Assembly (NCBI GenBank): GCA_046309355.1
Contig: JBKCPL010000057.1
Location: 14,668-78,667 of the forward strand
DNA: 64,000 nucleotides
Direction: 5' to 3'
DNA from: Bacteroidota bacterium
GTDB lineage: Bacteria; Bacteroidota; Bacteroidia; UKL13-3
In this document: one piece after another, positions 1 through 7,571 of the stretch
Layout of the letters: each line of letters starts with the position of its first letter
How positions within the stretch are numbered: the first letter of the stretch is position 1
Notes under the pieces: model-generated
Told to the model about the DNA's origin: nothing
Database searches by the model: none
Seen by the model: the letters and a program-made list of their open reading frames with translations, nothing else
Position numbers and translations under genes: made by a program

Positions 1-3
1 TGA

Positions 4-40
4 AAGAAGGCCCGCCACGCGAAGCGTGGCGGGCCTTCTT
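4..40. terminator. Perfect 17-bp stem / 3-nt loop GC-rich hairpin (AAGAAGGCCCGCCACGC-gaa-GCGTGGCGGGCCTTCTT), followed on + strand by ATTTATTTCTT; intrinsic terminator, lies 85 nt downstream of the ndk stop (minus strand) and may also terminate a + strand gene left of the window
   Basis: Read directly: perfect inverted repeat at 4-20 / 24-40, with T-rich tract after it on + strand. Confidence 0.6.
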
Positions 41-124
41 ATTTATTTCTTGTATTATGCGTAAAAAAAATCCCGACCACTGTTCAGCAATCGGGATGTA
101 TAATTAAATGACTAATAGATGTAA

Positions 125-544
125 TTAGAAGCGCTCGAAGCTGCTGAAGAAGAAACCTGCTTCGCGGGCTGCATTCTCATCGCTGTCGCTGCCATGTATA
201 GCATTGGCATCAATCGATTTGGCATACAAATTACGGATAGTGCCGGGCGCTGCTTTTTGCGGATCGGTAGCCCCTATTACTTCACGAAAATCAGCTACAG
301 CATTTTCTTTTTCGAGTACTGCAGCTACAATAGGACCTGAGGTCATAAAAGCTACCAGCTCTCCAAAAAACGGACGCTCGCGGTGAATATCATAAAACTC
401 ACCTGCTTTTTCTTCGCTCAGGCGGGTGTACTTCATGGCTTTGATTTTGAAGCCCTTTTGAATAATATGGTCAATAATTTTTCCGGTGTGGCCGTTTGCA
501 ACTGCATCGGGCTTAATCATGGTGAAGGTGATTTTTCCGCTCAT
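125..544 (-). CDS. ndk: nucleoside diphosphate kinase
   Basis: Translation ([15 protein letters not shown]...NAIHGSDS...) matches the NDK family over full length; start moved to internal Met (MSGK) of the longer ORF 125..595. Confidence 0.9.
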
Positions 545-625
545 ATATGTTTGTTTCTGAATTTCGGGGCGCAAAGATATTTTGATTTCTATCAAAACCT
601 ATAAAACCGGGTTAATTATCTGTTA
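473..625. repeat. Left copy of 153-bp direct repeat (covers ndk codons 1-24 plus 81 bp of ndk upstream/promoter region); att-like boundary of the island
   Basis: 473-625 is identical to 6213-6365 except one position (A575 vs G6315); also visible as duplicated antisense ORFs 383..604 and 6120..6344 in the ORF track. Confidence 0.9.
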
Positions 626-920
626 TTCCGATGATATTGATGTGATGATAAGTTAAATCATGCAAAATTTTATCTTGTTCCCAAATTATTAAGAAGCGTT
701 TTCAATTATTTGTTTTATGTAATTAACAGAAGACTGCCAATTCATTACAATTTACTATAACTTTTTGAATGTATTTATAATAGTATTCTTTATTCTAAAA
801 AGTTTGAGAACTATACTTATTAATACTATATGATTGTAGTTACAATAAGTTTTGTGACTAAATATTTGATTAGAAATTAAACATAACACAAAACAATAAT
901 TCCTGAAATTAAACAGATAA

Positions 921-1277
921 TTAATGAGTATTAATTTTATCAATTAGCTTTGTTATTTGTGTGTCTTTTACATTTAGTTGCTCTTTCAAGTATTGAACTT
1001 CTTTGCGTAACTCATCAACTAATTCTTTGGCATAAGTTATTTCAATACTATCAATCTCTTCAGTAGTAGTCATGGCTAATATCTTAGTCACACTAGTCTC
1101 GTATAGACTTGCTAATTTTTCTAAGCGTTCAACAGAAATAGCAACCTGACCACGTTCCATACGACCATAATTAGTTGTATCTATTTCTAAATAGTCAGCA
1201 ACCTGCTCTTGACTAATCCCTTTCTGTTTGCGAATTTGACGTATGGCTTCGTACACTGATATTTTTTTATTTACCAC
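921..1277 (-). CDS. XRE-family helix-turn-helix transcriptional regulator with C-terminal coiled coil (cI/Cro-like position, divergent from island operon)
   Basis: N-terminal HTH_XRE signature (KQKGISQEQVADYLEIDTTNYGRMERG); C-terminal heptad-like region (LVDELRKEVQYLKEQL). Confidence 0.7.
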   Translation of the reverse strand: MVNKKISVYEAIRQIRKQKGISQEQVADYLEIDTTNYGRMERGQVAISVERLEKLASLYETSVTKILAMTTTEEIDSIEITYAKELVDELRKEVQYLKEQLNVKDTQITKLIDKINTH

Positions 1278-1451
1278 AACACGAAATTATCGTTACAACC
1301 GTATGCATATAGTGCATAATAATCATATTTATATGCGTTTTTTATGTTATTAATTGCGTTATTTGCATTTTATTATTATCGTGTAACCAAATAATACATA
1401 TTTATAAAAACATTAAAAGTTTAAGTGGTTTACGAAAACTGCATAGTAAGA

Positions 1452-2249
1452 ATGAAAAATAAAATATTTACCGTTGCTGTACTACTATTCGCTACCTCAA
1501 CAAATGCGCAATGGAGTGGGCCTATAAATGGAACCTTAAATACTTCAAATTTTGTTAATATCAATCGATTTGGTATTGGAACAGGACCTAGTTTACCATT
1601 ACTATCTTTAAGTCATGACCCTGGAAATGGTGTATACTACCCTTTACATGTAACAGAGAATCGTGTGGGCATTGGCACAAATAATCCACAGGCGAGTTTT
1701 CATGTACTGAATAATTTGTTAATGACTAGGAGTAATAATACGGAGATTTTTAAAGTTAACTCGACTGGATTGCTCCGCTTAACTACAGATGGCATTGACA
1801 ATAATTTTAGAGGCTTCTATATAAACAATGGAAATAATGATTTTTTCGCATTAACACAGTCTAATATGTACTACAATGGTAAATTTACTTTAAAAGGAGA
1901 TCTTGTAATTAAGGATAATAATAATGATGTGCAGTATAGGTTATATCAGGATGGTTTAATAAGGGCACGTGAAGTTAAGGTAGATTTAAGTATTATACCT
2001 CCCGATTATGTATTTGAAGCCGGATATAAACTAATGCCTCTTAAAGAACTCGATAAGTATATTAAAGAAAATAAGCATTTACCGAGAATACCATCAGCTA
2101 AAGCTATGCAGGATGAAAATGGCATACAAGTCGGTTACATGCAATTATTACTATTAGAAAAAGTAGAGGAATTAACTTTATATTTACTTCAACTAAAAGA
2201 AGAGAATGAATGGTTGAAACAACGCATTACCCTACTCGAGCAGCAATAG
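1452..2249 (+). CDS. secreted tail-fiber domain protein (Peptidase_S74 / endosialidase intramolecular-chaperone-like C-terminal domain) with N-terminal GIGT repeats
   Basis: Signal peptide MKNKIFTVAVLLFATSTNAQ; repeated N(R)xGIGTxxP motifs; C-terminal PDYVFEAGYKLMPLKELDKYIKENKHLPRIPSA...EELTLYLLQLKEEN motif typical of Bacteroidota 'tail fiber domain-containing' proteins; start placed at Met10 of ORF 1425..2249. Confidence 0.6.
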   Translation: MKNKIFTVAVLLFATSTNAQWSGPINGTLNTSNFVNINRFGIGTGPSLPLLSLSHDPGNGVYYPLHVTENRVGIGTNNPQASFHVLNNLLMTRSNNTEIFKVNSTGLLRLTTDGIDNNFRGFYINNGNNDFFALTQSNMYYNGKFTLKGDLVIKDNNNDVQYRLYQDGLIRAREVKVDLSIIPPDYVFEAGYKLMPLKELDKYIKENKHLPRIPSAKAMQDENGIQVGYMQLLLLEKVEELTLYLLQLKEENEWLKQRITLLEQQ

Positions 2250-2929
2250 CATTGTTAGTTATGCTGTTGATAGTTGGTACAAGTAGTGCCCAGCGAGGAG
2301 TTGCGCTAAAAACAGGTGTGCTGTATGGTTACTCCTGGCTTACATTCAACGAAAGTTCGCAAAGTTTTGATAAACGACTTGCACGCGAAAAGATTAACTA
2401 TACGCCACTACAAAGTGTAGGGATTGAGATGGGTGCTCGCATTTTTATTTCATCAAAATTAGCATTGGAAGTAGTTCCACGTTGGCAGCAATGGGGTGGT
2501 ACAATCACCGTAAATAGTAATGAATATACCAACCAAATGCTGAAAATGGTAATTAATTATCAAAGCTTTCGAATACCCGCTACACTCCAATACGCCTTTG
2601 CCGGTAACGAGCGCTTGCAATTTTTTGCTTCACTTGGTATAGGCATAGATTATACCTACCGCTTATGGTTTTTACCCACTAACTACTATGGCAGTGCACC
2701 CACACAAAGACGTACTGTTGATATTGTAACACCATTTACTTCCATAGGTTTCGGTTTTACTTACACACCTAGCGCCAATAGTCAAATGAGTTATACGTTT
2801 GGTATCAATTATGAAACTGATGCTCTCTTAAACCCCGTCAGGTTTAATGAGTTCAATTTTTGGCAAAACTCTGTGCCGTTACTTTCGCATCAGCTCCATA
2901 CTTCTTTTCTAATACAGTACCGTTTATGA
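2210..2929 (+). CDS. outer-membrane beta-barrel (porin-family-like) protein
   Basis: Signal peptide ending SSAQ; alternating hydrophobic/aromatic beta-strand pattern, Y/F/W-rich; alternative start ATG at 2261 would remove the 40-nt overlap with the upstream gene. Confidence 0.45.
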   Translation: MVETTHYPTRAAIALLVMLLIVGTSSAQRGVALKTGVLYGYSWLTFNESSQSFDKRLAREKINYTPLQSVGIEMGARIFISSKLALEVVPRWQQWGGTITVNSNEYTNQMLKMVINYQSFRIPATLQYAFAGNERLQFFASLGIGIDYTYRLWFLPTNYYGSAPTQRRTVDIVTPFTSIGFGFTYTPSANSQMSYTFGINYETDALLNPVRFNEFNFWQNSVPLLSHQLHTSFLIQYRL

Positions 2930-3657
2930 AAATACATGTGATAAAATTATTGCTAGTTATCACCAGCACTATGGTATTGAACACCTGCTTGGCACAACTA
3001 TTTCATCCAAAAGACTCAGTGCGAAAGCAACGAATTGTGCAAGTGGGGCTAGGCGGCTATATGGGTGTTAACCATGTAAAGCCCATAAACCAAATCATGA
3101 GATATCAGATCGCAAACGGTTATGATAAGGGATTATTGGCTGATTTGAAAGTTAATATCACAAATTACTTATCGGTTAAAAGCGGCTTACGAATGAGTGA
3201 ACAAACAGCTATGCTTGGATATGGTAACAATACCTTTTTTGAATCATTTCATTTAACTATGAATAGGCAAACAGTACCAATGTTAATTTCTTTTAAAGCC
3301 AATCATGCCGGCATAAATTTATTTGATGTTGAATTAGGTATTGCTTACAATAACATATCCTTTCGCAGTACAAACAATAACACATATTGGCTGCTTACGT
3401 ATTATTTTGGCTCGCAATATACAGGTGGTTATTGGATAAATTATCAAAATGTAAGCGCTTTATCATATATCCTAAATATTAATAAGGAATATAAAATCAA
3501 AAAATCACTTTTCATCCAATTCTTTAGCGAACTAGATATACTGAGCAAAACACTTGATATACAAGATGCTTATCGGATGCCAGATTTATCTATTATTCAA
3601 TATCAGACACCGTTTATGCTATATAGTATAAGATTAGGAGTTGCAATAAAGTACTAG
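2926..3657 (+). CDS. outer-membrane beta-barrel-like protein (paralogous in style to the upstream gene)
   Basis: Start at internal Met (MKIHVIKLLLVITSTMVLNTCLAQ signal peptide), ATGA overlap with upstream stop; amphipathic beta-strand composition, C-terminal aromatic residue. Confidence 0.4.
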   Translation: MKIHVIKLLLVITSTMVLNTCLAQLFHPKDSVRKQRIVQVGLGGYMGVNHVKPINQIMRYQIANGYDKGLLADLKVNITNYLSVKSGLRMSEQTAMLGYGNNTFFESFHLTMNRQTVPMLISFKANHAGINLFDVELGIAYNNISFRSTNNNTYWLLTYYFGSQYTGGYWINYQNVSALSYILNINKEYKIKKSLFIQFFSELDILSKTLDIQDAYRMPDLSIIQYQTPFMLYSIRLGVAIKY

Positions 3658-3658
3658 T

Positions 3659-5776
3659 ATGAGAAAACATTTTTTTATAACATTATTTTTGTTAAGTATT
3701 GTGTTAGCTAATAACAGCATTGCACAAGTACCCAACAATATAATACCTAACAGCAATTTTAACCATGCAAATAGGGAACCCTTTGTATTACCTGCGTGCA
3801 ATACCCTATTAAAAAATAAAAATGATTATACATTAGTTATTGAGAATTGGAAGGGTGAAGGAGAACGTAACACACCTGAGTGGCGTTCATTTATTGCTGA
3901 CAACAATAATTCGTTTTGTAGTGTATGTAGCCCTTTAAATCCAACTGGACAAAATCCATTTATAGATGATAACTTTATCTTTATTGCGCAAGATGAACTT
4001 GTACCTTATGGTGAATGGCTTTATGCTGAATTGTATACATCTTTGAATTATGATAAAAAGTATAAATTAAGAGTAATTGGTCAAGGTCATTTACCTGCGC
4101 TACCATCTCTGCACGATCCCGGTGTTATTGCTATTCATCTTACTTTACCTGGCAGCAACTGGCACCATCAAAGTGAACTAGACAAAAGCATGATGAGTAT
4201 GATGTATTGCACACATCAGGAATATGAATGTAAACCAAGATCATTTGAACACATTTTTACAGTCACAAAACCGAATTTAAAACAAATTGTATTACAAGCA
4301 AACAATGCGGGATTCTTTATTGACCGAGTAGAACTTTACGAATACTGCACTGAGCTACTTACCCGGCAAGGCCGCACCTATAAATTTGACAGGGAATTAG
4401 AAGAGGCGGGAACCATTATAGCAGGTTCAGTAATTAACAATGCACCAGCAATGGGTGATGTAGTTATGCTGGATGGAAGCATTACCACCTATAAAGCGGC
4501 TAACGAGGTGAAATTAACAGAAGGATTTTATGTGAACAGAGGTGCTGATTTTAGTGCTAAAATTGCACCATGCGGGCAGGATTGTCCATCCACGAACATA
4601 AACATCCCTTCAGAATACGTGCTGTGCAATAGCGATTGTATTAATTTAACTACCGGTACGGTTACTCGCGGGTTAACAGTAAACTGGACTTCGCAAGATG
4701 CGCAAAACTTACAGTACTTATCATCTGTAAGTGTTATAAATCCTGTGTTTTGCCCACCACCTGGCACTTCGGGTGTTTATGAATACGATGTGGTTATACA
4801 AAATGGTTGCGGTGAAACAACAACTAAAAAAGTAACTATAAAATATTTTAGCACACCAGTTCCTGATCCTACAATTAATATTACAAATAGTAACTTAGCT
4901 ACATTACCTACCTATCCTGAAATAAGTGTAGCTTCTACTGAGTTTACCGAATATGTAAATTATGATATTTTAGATTGTAATGGCAATTTGATTCATACAC
5001 AAACATTCACATTCTTTAATCAACAAATGCCTCCGGCACCGGCTCAGTTTAAATTTAACCAATTTTTAGATCCCTGTGGTTGCTATAAAATAAGAATACG
5101 TCAGAAAAATCATTGTAATGAGACGATTGCTGAACAAATATTAGATTGGAATAGACAACAATCCATAAGCAATCTCTTTTTCCCTACATTTATTATATGT
5201 AAAGATGGAAAACGATTAATTTGTTTTGACGGTAAAGGAATAAAACAGTTTCAATTGCAATTGTTTAATAAGTGGGGACAATCTGTATTAAATACATCAG
5301 GTAGTTACAACAAAGACCCGTATTGTATAGAGTTTCCATCACACCTACCAGCAGGTCCATATTATTACATTATAACATTTATAGGATGTGATGGAAGTGT
5401 TCTTACTGCTAATGGAAGTATGCAAGTAGGGGGATGTGATGAATCCATGCTATTGATAAATAACAACGATACAGATAGCATAGAGGCATTTAATAACTTA
5501 GCCGACTCTATATTCATGGAATTAAGTCCTAATCCTACGGCAAATGAAGTGACAATAAGTTTTACCATACCCAATAGTGGTCAATTGAGAATTAATTTGC
5601 TAGATAAAAACTTAAGTCAAAATCAAGTGGTACACGATATGTATTACAGTAATAGTGGAAGTTATCAAATTAGCGTGCAAGTAAATCATCTGTCTGGTGG
5701 TATAAATTATTGCTTATTTGAGTTTATAAATGGAGGTACAGTTAAGGTATATAAAAAATTTACACTAATACGTTAA
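3659..5776 (+). CDS. 705-aa secreted T9SS cargo protein: internal CHU_C/type-B-like CTD segment plus C-terminal type-A Por secretion tail; Cys-rich middle region
   Basis: Signal peptide MRKHFFITLFLLSIVLANNSIAQ; C-terminus LSPNPTANEVTISF...GQLRINLLD...SGSYQISVQVNHLSGGINYCLFEF...KVYKKFTLIR fits the Por_Secre_tail pattern; internal QLQLFNKWGQSVLNT...LPAGPYYYIITF resembles the gliding-motility C-terminal (type B) domain. Confidence 0.55.
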   Translation: MRKHFFITLFLLSIVLANNSIAQVPNNIIPNSNFNHANREPFVLPACNTLLKNKNDYTLVIENWKGEGERNTPEWRSFIADNNNSFCSVCSPLNPTGQNPFIDDNFIFIAQDELVPYGEWLYAELYTSLNYDKKYKLRVIGQGHLPALPSLHDPGVIAIHLTLPGSNWHHQSELDKSMMSMMYCTHQEYECKPRSFEHIFTVTKPNLKQIVLQANNAGFFIDRVELYEYCTELLTRQGRTYKFDRELEEAGTIIAGSVINNAPAMGDVVMLDGSITTYKAANEVKLTEGFYVNRGADFSAKIAPCGQDCPSTNINIPSEYVLCNSDCINLTTGTVTRGLTVNWTSQDAQNLQYLSSVSVINPVFCPPPGTSGVYEYDVVIQNGCGETTTKKVTIKYFSTPVPDPTINITNSNLATLPTYPEISVASTEFTEYVNYDILDCNGNLIHTQTFTFFNQQMPPAPAQFKFNQFLDPCGCYKIRIRQKNHCNETIAEQILDWNRQQSISNLFFPTFIICKDGKRLICFDGKGIKQFQLQLFNKWGQSVLNTSGSYNKDPYCIEFPSHLPAGPYYYIITFIGCDGSVLTANGSMQVGGCDESMLLINNNDTDSIEAFNNLADSIFMELSPNPTANEVTISFTIPNSGQLRINLLDKNLSQNQVVHDMYYSNSGSYQISVQVNHLSGGINYCLFEFINGGTVKVYKKFTLIR

Positions 5777-5789
5777 CTCGTAATGATAT

Positions 5790-6212
5790 ATGAGGCTGTT
5801 AATCTCAATATTACTATTTCAAATACTACTATTTTCTGTGAATATTGGTGCACAATCGAGGATAGATCATATTGACTTTTTTGAGGGCAGTAATACTAAA
5901 ACTGCCACAACACTAGCAATTGATTCGCAGTCTACTTCGGTAAGCGGCATTGTTAATACGGGTGCTATAAACAACACTTATTCGTTAATATCTAAGGATA
6001 GTATCACCTTACATCGTAAGCTACGCTTTGGGTTGGGTGTTTTCGGTGGCATGTCAAATTACTTCACTACTTCAAATGCATTTAGTACTCAAACACAAAT
6101 TGGAAAAGATTAAGGTGCATTGGTACATGTTAGTTATAGAATCACTAAAAAAATATCATTTGATGCAGAGCTTAGATATGTAGGTAAAAATTTATATACT
6201 TCATATGCAAAT
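5790..6212 (+). pseudogene. outer-membrane beta-barrel gene disrupted by an in-frame TAA (6114-6116) and truncated at the island/repeat junction
   Basis: ORFs 5790..6113 and 6120..6344 are in the same frame, separated by one stop; the second piece (…FDAELRYVGKNLYTSYANNNF) is OMP-like and then runs into the duplicated ndk sequence. Confidence 0.5.
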
Positions 6213-6365
6213 AATAATTTTTCCGGTGTGGCCGTTTGCAACTGCATCGGGCTTAATCATGGTGAAGGTGATTTTTCCGCTCATATATGTTTGTTTCTGA
6301 ATTTCGGGGCGCAAGGATATTTTGATTTCTATCAAAACCTATAAAACCGGGTTAATTATCTGTTA
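6213..6365. repeat. Right copy of 153-bp direct repeat; contains a second ndk promoter and an orphan 24-codon ndk 5' fragment (6213-6284, minus strand)
   Basis: 152/153 identity to 473-625. Confidence 0.9.
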
Positions 6366-6398
6366 CTGCATGCCCTTGAAACACCTGAGGTTGTTAAA

Positions 6399-7571
6399 TT
6401 GCCCTATATTCGCAACGTGAAAAATCCGCTACGTACACGCATTGGCATCATTGGTGGAGGTCAGCTGGGCCGCATGATGATTGAGGAGTCGCTACGGCTC
6501 AATGTATCTTTCAATACGCTGGATGCAGCCGATTGTCCCTGTGTCCGATTATCGGCACAGCATATTGCAGGAAAACTCACCGATGGTGATGCTATACGTA
6601 AGCTGGCTGCCATAAGCGATGTACTTACCTACGAAATTGAACATATTGATGTAGCCACACTGCTGCAATTGGAGCGTGAGGGTAAAACCATCATTCCATC
6701 GCCACAGGTATTGCAGATTATTCAGGATAAAGGTTTACAAAAACAATTTTTTGAAACGAACGGGTTGCCTACTGCACCTTTTGTGTTGGTAAACACCGCT
6801 GCAGAGTGGCCTCAGGCTGCTCAGCAACTGGGTGGTGAAAAACTGGCCGCCAAAACCCGCAAAGACGGGTATGATGGAAAAGGTGTGTGTTTGGTAACAA
6901 CCGCTGACGTAATGCGTGGCCATTTACCGTTTGATGTGCCTTCGGTATTGGAGCAATTTATACCTTGCCAGAAGGAGTTATCTGTACTGGTAGCCCGCAC
7001 GGCAACAGGTGATGTAACCACATGGCCGGTGGTTGAAATGGTGTTCGACCCGGTAGCCAATTTGGTTACGTTTTTAGAATGCCCTTCGCAAGTTGATGCT
7101 TCGCTTCAACAACAAGCGCGTGATATCTCTATCAAAGCAATTCAATTACTGAACGGTGTGGGCGTATTTGCCGTTGAGTTATTTTTAACTGAAAACAATA
7201 CTATCCTTATCAACGAAATTGCTCCGCGCCCGCACAACTCGGGCCACCACACTATTGAAGCCTGTTATACTTCTCAGTTCGAACAACTGGTTCGCATCTT
7301 GTGCGGATTGCCTCTGGGAAATACCGATTTGATACAGCCCGCTGTAATGATGAACCTGCTTGGCGCACCTGATTTCAATGGCCCGTATGCCTTGCAAGGC
7401 TTACATGAGGCTATGCACACCGAAGGTGTGTACATTCATTTATACGACAAAGCTGAGAGCAAACCCATGCGTAAAATGGGGCATGTTACTATTATGGCAC
7501 CTACGCTTGAATCAGCTATAGAAAAAGCTTACAAAATAAAAGATTTACTGAAGTTTGTTCCCGAGGGCTAG
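6399..7571 (+). CDS. purK: N5-carboxyaminoimidazole ribonucleotide synthase (ATP-grasp)
   Basis: GIIGGGQLGRMM N-terminus and ATP-grasp body typical of PurK. Confidence 0.85.
   Translation: MPYIRNVKNPLRTRIGIIGGGQLGRMMIEESLRLNVSFNTLDAADCPCVRLSAQHIAGKLTDGDAIRKLAAISDVLTYEIEHIDVATLLQLEREGKTIIPSPQVLQIIQDKGLQKQFFETNGLPTAPFVLVNTAAEWPQAAQQLGGEKLAAKTRKDGYDGKGVCLVTTADVMRGHLPFDVPSVLEQFIPCQKELSVLVARTATGDVTTWPVVEMVFDPVANLVTFLECPSQVDASLQQQARDISIKAIQLLNGVGVFAVELFLTENNTILINEIAPRPHNSGHHTIEACYTSQFEQLVRILCGLPLGNTDLIQPAVMMNLLGAPDFNGPYALQGLHEAMHTEGVYIHLYDKAESKPMRKMGHVTIMAPTLESAIEKAYKIKDLLKFVPEG

Follow-up and report, generated by a model that had tools for sequence, protein, structure and literature searches.

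A fibre-like exported protein and its C-terminal module on a small acquired island of a Bacteroidota bacterium

A repressor-like gene that faces a fibre-like gene may belong to a phage or to the cell that carries it. This question is posed by the left end of a 64,000-nucleotide stretch of DNA from a Bacteroidota bacterium (the whole stretch is called the window below), in which the gene for an XRE-family helix-turn-helix (HTH) regulator (921-1277, minus strand) diverges from a plus-strand gene for a fibre-like exported protein (1452-2249). An earlier note on this DNA had described the pair as a phage-like module, with a cI/Cro-type switch upstream of a protein ending in a Peptidase_S74-like chaperone domain, and had proposed either a prophage remnant or a co-opted fibre. 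Our analysis indicates that we are very probably dealing with neither a prophage remnant nor a canonical S74 protein. With the wrong label of S74 chaperone and prophage removed, the locus itself is an ordinary small acquired island with an uncharacterised envelope operon.

Taking the whole package together, we consider it fairly probable that an acquired island carries an XRE-controlled operon encoding an exported, trimeric fibre that works at the envelope. Specifically, a 5.6-kb island would have been acquired horizontally and inserted between ndk and purK, and its XRE protein would control the divergent operon of Sec-exported envelope proteins. The fibre, itself exported by Sec, would trimerise from its C-terminal coiled-coil module without self-cleavage and would act at the envelope, probably as a short surface fibre, with co-encoded small outer-membrane barrels and a protein of 705 amino acids (aa) sorted by a secretion system of type IX (T9SS). 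Within a very large family of Bacteroidota proteins that combine a Sec signal, a trimeric beta-helix-type stalk of GIGT..P...L repeats and a C-terminal helical module of ~100 aa, it would count as a short representative.

The fibre protein and its C-terminal module

The likely start of the fibre gene is the ATG at 1452, which gives a precursor of 265 aa; starting instead from a GTG at 1425 would lengthen it to 274 aa. The N-terminus (MKNKIFTVAVLLFATSTNA|QW) is a Sec signal peptide of residues 1-19 (1452-1508) with cleavage at A19|Q20, leaving a mature protein of about 246 aa. The earlier note had thus been right in describing the first gene of the operon as encoding a secreted protein with GIGT repeats, and had mistaken the length of the precursor for that of the mature protein. 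The two GIGT motifs occupy residues 41-44 and 73-76 (1572-1583 and 1668-1679) within a beta-strand stalk of residues ~28-172; in an AlphaFold2 (AF2) monomer model (pLDDT 85), short beta strands at residues 28-172 are followed by three helices. The stalk also contains RVGIGTNNPQASFHV, a motif of the V-G-[GN]-x-x-x-P-x-x-x-L capping-loop type. More than 3,156 homologue clusters were found for the fibre protein, nearly all of them unnamed, and given these homologue numbers and the conservation of the XRE gene both 921-1277 and 1452-2249 are real genes.

A profile of 74 family members matched the mosaic adhesive trimer (MAT) fibres of Bdellovibrio bacteriovorus in the GIGT-repeat region only (Bd2133, 8OND, 1.1e-9; 8OML, 1.1e-4; 8OJN, 3.9e-4). 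MATs are trimeric beta-helix fibres with the same capping-loop motif, which is common to S74 proteins such as MYRF, and some of them carry other domains in place of the S74 chaperone (PMC10769870). On the strength of these profile matches, the GIGT-repeat stalk is judged to be homologous to trimeric beta-helix fibres. In scans of Pfam, NCBIfam, PHROGs and PADLOC the sole match of the fibre protein was the stalk-only phrog_18345 (E 0.079), and a Foldseek search of the PDB with the whole monomer model gave weak matches to the stalk only (E>=0.036).

The conserved C-terminal module, delimited by invariant alignment columns, comprises residues ~168-265 (1953-2249, plus strand). Its features are G-x-I-x-A-x-E-V-x-V, PDYVF (2001-2015), Y192, L194, HLP (209-211) and S215, then LLEKVEELTLY (234-244), with a long helix at the end (227-264). 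The consensus of 188 members reads W-P-D-Y-V-F-x3-Y-x-L-x-[SP]-L-x-E-[VL]-E-x-[YF]-I-x2-N-K-H-L-P-x-I-P-S-A and continues x-E-x3-N-G-x2-L-G-E-M-x3-L-L-K-K-[IV]-E-E-L-T-L-Y, after which comes a variable helix of 25-40 residues. AF2 modelled the module alone with a pLDDT of 87.7 and a pTM of 0.72. The module is always C-terminal, and the length of the region before it varies from 88 to 1,381 aa in chromosomal members. Since a constant distal module on variable fibres would be expected to serve as an assembly or trimerisation element rather than as a receptor-binding tip, the module is most likely a non-proteolytic nucleus for C-terminal trimerisation and assembly, built on a coiled coil.

No model in Pfam, NCBIfam or PHROGs covers the module, and our literature search, the MAT work on Bdellovibrio aside, retrieved no paper describing the family. 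Both the module and the size of its cellular family therefore appear to be undescribed in the libraries and literature searched. In BFVD the module had one significant match, A0A5J6VKV2 (E 2.1e-4, TM 0.69), an unnamed 719-aa protein of a 'Megaviridae environmental sample' for which mislabelling or contamination is possible. Single-sequence searches of the PDB, with the C-terminal domain as well as with a canonical S74 seed, were uninformative.

Is this module a Peptidase_S74 domain? The earlier note had assigned the C-terminal ~90 aa to such a chaperone, and had itself named the lack of a significant profile or structural match there as the outcome that would speak against it; this is what was found. 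PF13884 was absent from the fibre protein at E<=1 and from all 74 aligned family members at E<=10. For profile comparison, beginning with a canonical S74 protein in L069 (...ANSDARVKKEI...), PF13884-type domains were gathered in two rounds, 33 in the first and about 150 more in the second; a hidden Markov model (HMM) built from 169 canonical S74 domains gave a best E of 0.04 among 313 family members. No fold similarity to solved domains of intramolecular chaperone auto-processing (ICA; 3GW6, 4UW8, MYRF) was found, and the S74 protein in the BFVD search was not significant (E 2.5, probability 0.06). As to the conserved autocleavage serine for which the earlier note had proposed a check, the Ser-Lys dyad SDxxxK is absent from the fibre/chaperone boundary, which reads GLIRAREVKV; most members have an Ala at the dyad position, and in the 2 of 188 members with an SDxxxK it lies within a GIGT loop. 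By HMM, motif or fold, an identity of the module with Peptidase_S74 is not supported.

There are nevertheless two points in favour of a more distant relationship. The label 'Peptidase S74 domain-containing protein' is given in UniRef to two members in which only this module is present, and hhalign aligned the helical half of the module, and only that half, locally with canonical S74 (probability 8-10%, P 0.003-0.004), reproducibly pairing FI..NKHLP.IPS...LLEKVEELTLY with GFTAQNIQ.VFP...DAM.VEAIRAL, as had been expected by eye. Because of this naming and this alignment, which makes distant homology possible, we kept as a rival explanation that the module is a degenerate, distant Peptidase_S74/ICA domain. 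Such a domain would have lost its N-terminal Ser-Lys segment and kept the helical chaperone core, with cleavage either lost or performed by different residues, such as the invariant D185, H209 and S/T215. Like S74, the module ends a beta-helix stalk with GIGT repeats and has a coiled coil after it, and in Bdellovibrio S74 and non-S74 tips are swapped on the same type of stalk (PMC10769870). The low HH probability, the PF13884, HMM and BFVD results and the missing catalytic dyad all speak against this explanation, which we regard as conceivable but doubtful.

Two comparisons help to place the module. S74 phage fibres and tailspikes (PF13884; K1F endosialidase 3GW6, T5 pb1 4UW8) resemble the window fibre in that a triple beta-helix is succeeded by a C-terminal module whose last element is a long helix, with a presumed role in trimer assembly, and the window module also occurs on real phage fibres. 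The window protein differs from them in having no SDxxxK and no HMM or fold match in its module, in its Sec signal and in having no phage neighbours. The S74-ended 'tail fiber domain-containing proteins' of Bacteroidota (L069 6231-7175; P0121-P0152) come from the same phylum and share the upstream stalk motif G..GI..., but they end in ...ANSDARLKKNI...GFTAQNIQ and match PF13884, whereas the window family does neither.

The nearest described analogue is the MAT family of Bdellovibrio, in particular its non-S74 subgroup (Bd2133, Bd1334; 8OND, 8OML). Like the window fibre, MATs are cellular proteins with a signal peptide and a beta-helix stalk that has the same loop motif, and like the window family they carry a non-S74 module at the C-terminus and form multigene families. 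MATs are, however, about 1,000 aa long and have a ~130-aa beta-rich common N-terminal domain, compared with 265 aa for the window protein, and their PDB entries cover the C-terminal parts only. Their C-terminal tips are variable and adhesive, whereas in the window family the C-terminal module is conserved and the middle varies. The window family differs further in its Bacteroidota host and in its operon partners, outer-membrane barrels and T9SS cargo.

Phage particle or cell envelope

Under the reading of a prophage or tailocin remnant, the XRE gene would be a leftover repressor and the fibre gene a decaying tail-fibre gene without a cellular role. Consistent with this, the island that carries the fibre gene is foreign DNA, bounded by repeats and containing one gene in decay, the XRE protein matches phage repressor profiles (phrog_8, 2.6e-12; RstR, under the cutoff), and the C-terminal module is found on phage fibres. 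Against it, searches of the open reading frames (ORFs) of the island with Pfam, NCBIfam and PHROGs revealed no gene for a capsid, terminase, portal or tail protein, for lysis or for an integrase, in agreement with the statement of the earlier note that capsid, terminase and other phage genes are missing nearby, and a tblastn search of 50,697 deposited phage genomes gave zero matches.

Family members do occur in viral sequences. In IMG/VR we found 23 loci with family members, some of them in genuine phage structural modules. At L180, an 878-aa protein ending in the module is encoded directly after a baseplate wedge gene (phrog_219, 4.5e-26). At L185, a 612-aa protein ending in the module (4954-6792) is encoded between the genes for the major head protein (1.7e-73) and for a head-tail adaptor, with genes for the tail sheath downstream, and contigs related to L185 carry versions of 1,811 aa (L190 1003-6438) and 3,052 aa (L191 1478-10636). 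The earlier description as tail-fibre-like therefore stands for the stalk, with its MAT beta-helix matches (to 1e-9), and for the module, which ends the phage fibres of L180 and L185; its S74 part does not. As side observations, the L185, L190 and L191 proteins have a common N-terminus (STINPKPDSPN...) along with the same C-terminal module, and the location of the L185 gene between head protein and head-tail adaptor is unusual for a fibre gene.

Members inside or beside phage structural modules are without a signal peptide, as are the other large members of this kind. By comparison, a signal-like hydrophobic N-terminus was present in 92% of 182 chromosomal members, 167 of which also had an xQ motif. 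The signal peptide places the window protein in the exported, cellular class, unlike the phage-borne members. A virion fibre would not pass through Sec.

The cassette is moreover kept intact among housekeeping genes elsewhere, with fibre identities of 44-75%. At L001, a 75%-identical fibre is accompanied by the same divergent XRE gene, the same downstream genes for proteins of 239, 243 and 705 aa, and two intact genes for small outer-membrane protein (OMP)-like products (259-260 aa); this cassette is located elsewhere than ndk, with a thiolase gene on one side and housekeeping genes on the other. Subfamily members at 44-51% identity are found in L006, L008 and L090, and others in L009, L010, L011 and L030. 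In the distant subfamily loci the downstream genes encode small proteins of ~215-285 aa, of OMP_b-brl type or of no known type, and a large Por_Secre_tail protein, and other neighbours include gldLMN, parAB and aro genes. Conservation of the cassette among housekeeping genes points to selection for a cellular function. The prophage-remnant reading is therefore largely refuted, and we consider it very improbable. What the evidence favours is a domesticated fibre that is not part of a prophage, which is the co-opted fibre that the earlier note had offered as its alternative.

The island and its operon

The insertion between ndk and purK is a low-GC segment of 5,587 bp (626-6212), bracketed by a 153-bp direct repeat. 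The left copy (473-625) consists of the 5' end of ndk, which is intact here (125-544/595, minus strand), and its upstream region, and the right copy (6213-6365), a duplicated ndk 5' fragment, abuts purK (6399-7571). The copies differ by one mismatch (99% identity), and the left one is native, as its homology to locus L091 extends leftwards into the body of ndk. The GC content is 0.26-0.40 in the island compared with 0.43-0.49 in the flanks. L091, which holds the closest ndk relative available (88% aa), has a divergent purK at 180 bp from ndk and lacks the island; it was found by a protein-based search, an exact-pattern search of metagenomes for the empty ndk|purK site having given zero matches. 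The left junction of ndk with the island was reproduced in two independent metagenome contigs. Neither an integrase or recombinase domain nor a tRNA was found in the island. On the basis of repeats, composition and absence from the closest relative, the island is horizontally acquired and integrase-less. Its right end cuts a small OMP-like gene, and each of the two repeat copies has ATATG and AATAATTTTT flanking its left boundary. The cut gene and these short common motifs suggest that recombination, either illegitimate or homology-assisted, was at work and not a self-mobile element.

When positions 1-7000 were scanned for Rfam families and tRNAs, the only matches were sub-threshold ones on the ndk terminator hairpin. 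This GC-rich hairpin (1-69) downstream of ndk scored 32.5 bits against the Rfam model Thr_leader, for which the gathering score is 55; it is most simply the ndk terminator, and an independent metagenome contig (L004) begins within it.

The XRE gene (921-1277, minus strand) encodes a protein of 118 aa with an HTH_3 domain at residues 12-64 (PF01381, 2e-14). That it diverges from an operon, as the earlier note had it, is borne out by the plus-strand string of genes that starts at 1452. The coiled-coil tail proposed at the same time is less firm: the C-terminal ~45 aa are coiled-coil-like, and the basis for this call is limited to weak XLF_CC and ZapB matches. The RstR-like match of the protein in NCBIfam (45 bits) was under the cutoff of 80, and its PHROGs match, phrog_8, is a generic XRE/repressor family. 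PADLOC gave generic HTH matches alone, and a reading as a defence system was rejected.

An orthologue of 120 aa diverges from the same cassette in L001-L003 (1e-25), and the XRE gene is present at 7 of the 87 related loci, in one small clade; this distribution marks it as a local regulator of its clade and not as a feature of the fibre family. The window XRE resembles XRE/cI-type repressors in its HTH_3 domain, its small size, its location on acquired DNA and its divergence from presumed targets. It differs from cI-type systems in having neither a Cro-like second repressor nor a peptidase S24 domain, and its operators are presumptive. With a single HTH gene and the fibre gene itself on the opposite side, the supposed cI/Cro-type switch finds no support.

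Between the divergent genes lies an AT-rich region of 174 bp (1278-1451), the presumed promoter and operator. A 13-nt block in this spacer (1279-1291, ACACGAAATTATC) is conserved with L001. The spacer holds one perfect inverted repeat with 6-bp arms, TATGCA-n5-TGCATA (1302-1318), which is not conserved in L001. Scans of the spacer for promoters and terminators showed no sigma-70-like enrichment, and a search for the Bacteroidota -7 motif found no exact TAnnTTTG. An operator function of this region is thus a prediction from gene layout and sequence.

The plus-strand genes (1452-2249, 2210-2929, 2926-3657, 3659-5776 and 5790-6113) overlap or abut one another, and all five products start with a signal peptide followed by Gln. 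A Gln after the cleavage site is a common pattern in Bacteroidota substrates of signal peptidase I. The second gene (2210-2929, plus strand), which overlaps the fibre gene by 40 nt, encodes an exported protein of 239 aa (signal peptide ...SSA|Q) that is probably a small outer-membrane beta-barrel, with a PF13505 OMP_b-brl match (5e-5) under the gathering score; syntenic homologues are present in L001, L008, L009, L010 and L030. The third (2926-3657, plus strand) encodes an exported protein of 243 aa and of no known family, syntenic in L001, L009, L010 and L011. It is also probably a small outer-membrane beta-barrel: the protein itself has no match in the Pfam scan, its last residue is aromatic, and its paralogues and orthologues recurrently show sub-threshold PF13568 OMP_b-brl_2 matches (2.2e-5, 1.5e-4, 2.5e-3).

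The fourth gene (3659-5776, plus strand) encodes the exported 705-aa protein, the C-terminus of which looks like a T9SS-type sorting region from near-threshold Pfam matches to CHU_C (1.7e-5, 25.3 bits) and Por_Secre_tail (3.1e-5, 24.6 bits), with cutoffs of 27. Its equivalents in L006 and L090 have clear Por_Secre_tail matches. Residues 273-305 match the 3-coathanger stack domain NF045639 of NCBIfam (3.5e-9), and the remaining N-terminal region had no match in Pfam or the PDB. The last gene is the remnant of a small OMP-like gene (5790-6212, plus strand): its ORF of 107 aa is closed by an in-frame TAA (6111-6113), past which the frame runs on to the island edge, where it is truncated by the right repeat. 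The remnant weakly resembles two full-length genes (260 and 259 aa) that occupy the corresponding place in L001 (2e-4, 1e-4).

Several observations weigh against our reading of an XRE-controlled envelope operon with an exported fibre. The T9SS C-terminal domain and OMP calls for the window's own proteins are under the Pfam gathering scores, the XRE partner is confined to a small clade, and the fibre protein has no T9SS C-terminal domain, lipobox or barrel of its own; to these come the S74 names in UniRef and the hhalign alignment discussed above. The fibre might also remain periplasmic or sit on the outer membrane's inner face, tethering the barrels and the T9SS cargo structurally instead of being exposed as a fibre or adhesin. 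A Sec signal peptide without a recognisable signal for outer-membrane translocation, the shortness of the mature protein and the tight coupling of its gene to the OMP genes through the 40-nt overlap would all suit a tether. However, Bdellovibrio MATs and phage fibres, which make up all the characterised relatives of the stalk, are external fibres, and diversifying tandem arrays such as those formed by family members elsewhere are typical of exposed recognition proteins. We hold a tether to be unlikely, and a location of the fibre at the cell surface remains our preferred reading.

The family elsewhere and its partners

Relatives of the fibre are encoded at no fewer than 593 sites (>=593) in GTDB species representatives. 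Present at hundreds of sites and also at the end of real phage fibres, the module is the mark of a family of exported, phage-like Bacteroidota fibres that has gone unstudied. Tandem arrays are frequent among the sites, with 13 genes at L047, 12 at L054 (Pedobacter vanadiisoli) and 9 at L037 (a metagenome-assembled genome of Ekhidna). In head-to-tail arrays of 5-13 paralogues (L047, L054, L037, L087, L029, L022 and L031) the proteins differ in their N-terminal and central parts and have a constant C-terminal module.

These arrays have partners of several kinds. Clustering of array neighbours showed DUF6443-RHS proteins in 13 loci, together with an uncharacterised protein of ~1,150 aa, and a TPR-histidine kinase in 11 loci. 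A complete-looking cluster resembling a type IV filament or type II secretion system (T2SS) adjoins arrays in L018, L066 and L074 (Flavobacteriia and relatives); it includes pilin-like and PilN-like genes as well as those for a T2SSE ATPase (2.5e-128) and a secretin (1.2e-35). A secretin homologue is encoded beside the array in L033 and L052, and OmpH-like chaperone genes lie by arrays in four loci. The filament/T2SS-like cluster may be a dedicated export route for the fibres. Taken together, the contexts suggest that family members reach the outside by different routes, and they do not settle the route of the window protein.

From these contexts it could be argued that some other export or attack apparatus, be it a secretin/T2SS-type IV filament system or Rhs toxin delivery, has the window fibre as its substrate or accessory, and that the fibre's neighbours in the island are incidental. 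The T2SSE ATPase, secretin and pilin-like genes beside arrays, the additional secretin homologues, the OmpH-like gene in L018 and the RHS proteins are all in keeping with this. Yet array-partner genes of these kinds (secretin/T2SS, RHS and others) were found neither in the island nor anywhere in the 64-kb window, and in loci of the fibre's own subfamily with enough flank the partners are always small OMP-like and T9SS-tailed proteins. We accordingly think this explanation quite improbable for the window protein, and the envelope partners encoded in the island remain the favoured ones.

For the family as a whole we put forward, tentatively and as a joint claim that we think possible rather than probable, that the WPDYVF...HLPxIPSA...EELTLY module is an unclassified fibre-assembly domain without a Ser-Lys dyad, common to phages and Bacteroidota, and that it has been domesticated across the phylum for surface recognition. 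Domestication would have produced Sec-exported, diversifying repertoires, in arrays of up to 13 genes, beside secretin/T2SS-like machines, Rhs toxins or T9SS cargo, as a counterpart of the Bdellovibrio MATs. If these proteins are indeed surface recognition fibres, they would bear on adhesion, on inter-bacterial antagonism through the Rhs links and on phage-host receptor mimicry, as well as on the folding of trimeric fibres without the S74 protease.

Gene order around the family shows some further regularities. In L006 (10767-20549) a unit encoding an uncharacterised protein of ~280 aa, a Por_Secre_tail protein of ~950-1,000 aa and a 216-aa OMP_b-brl_2 protein is twice repeated after a single fibre gene, and a third copy of the unit apparently begins. 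In L089 (13901-21332), L066 (12322-18572) and L074 (11772-20282) the array is followed by the genes for the ~1,150-aa protein and the DUF6443-RHS protein, and the DUF6443-RHS-repeat protein of L089 bears a Tox-REase-3 toxin domain. The filament clusters (L074 2751-8926, L018 1762-7978 and L066 3136-9208) also encode a polytopic protein of 160 aa and a protein of 170 aa. Finally, arrays in L017, L018, L044 and L064 are followed by a conserved trio of genes, the largest product of which (~1,650-1,750 aa) had no match in Pfam; the order is array, OmpH/Skp-like chaperone, ~200-aa lipoprotein-like protein and then this large protein.

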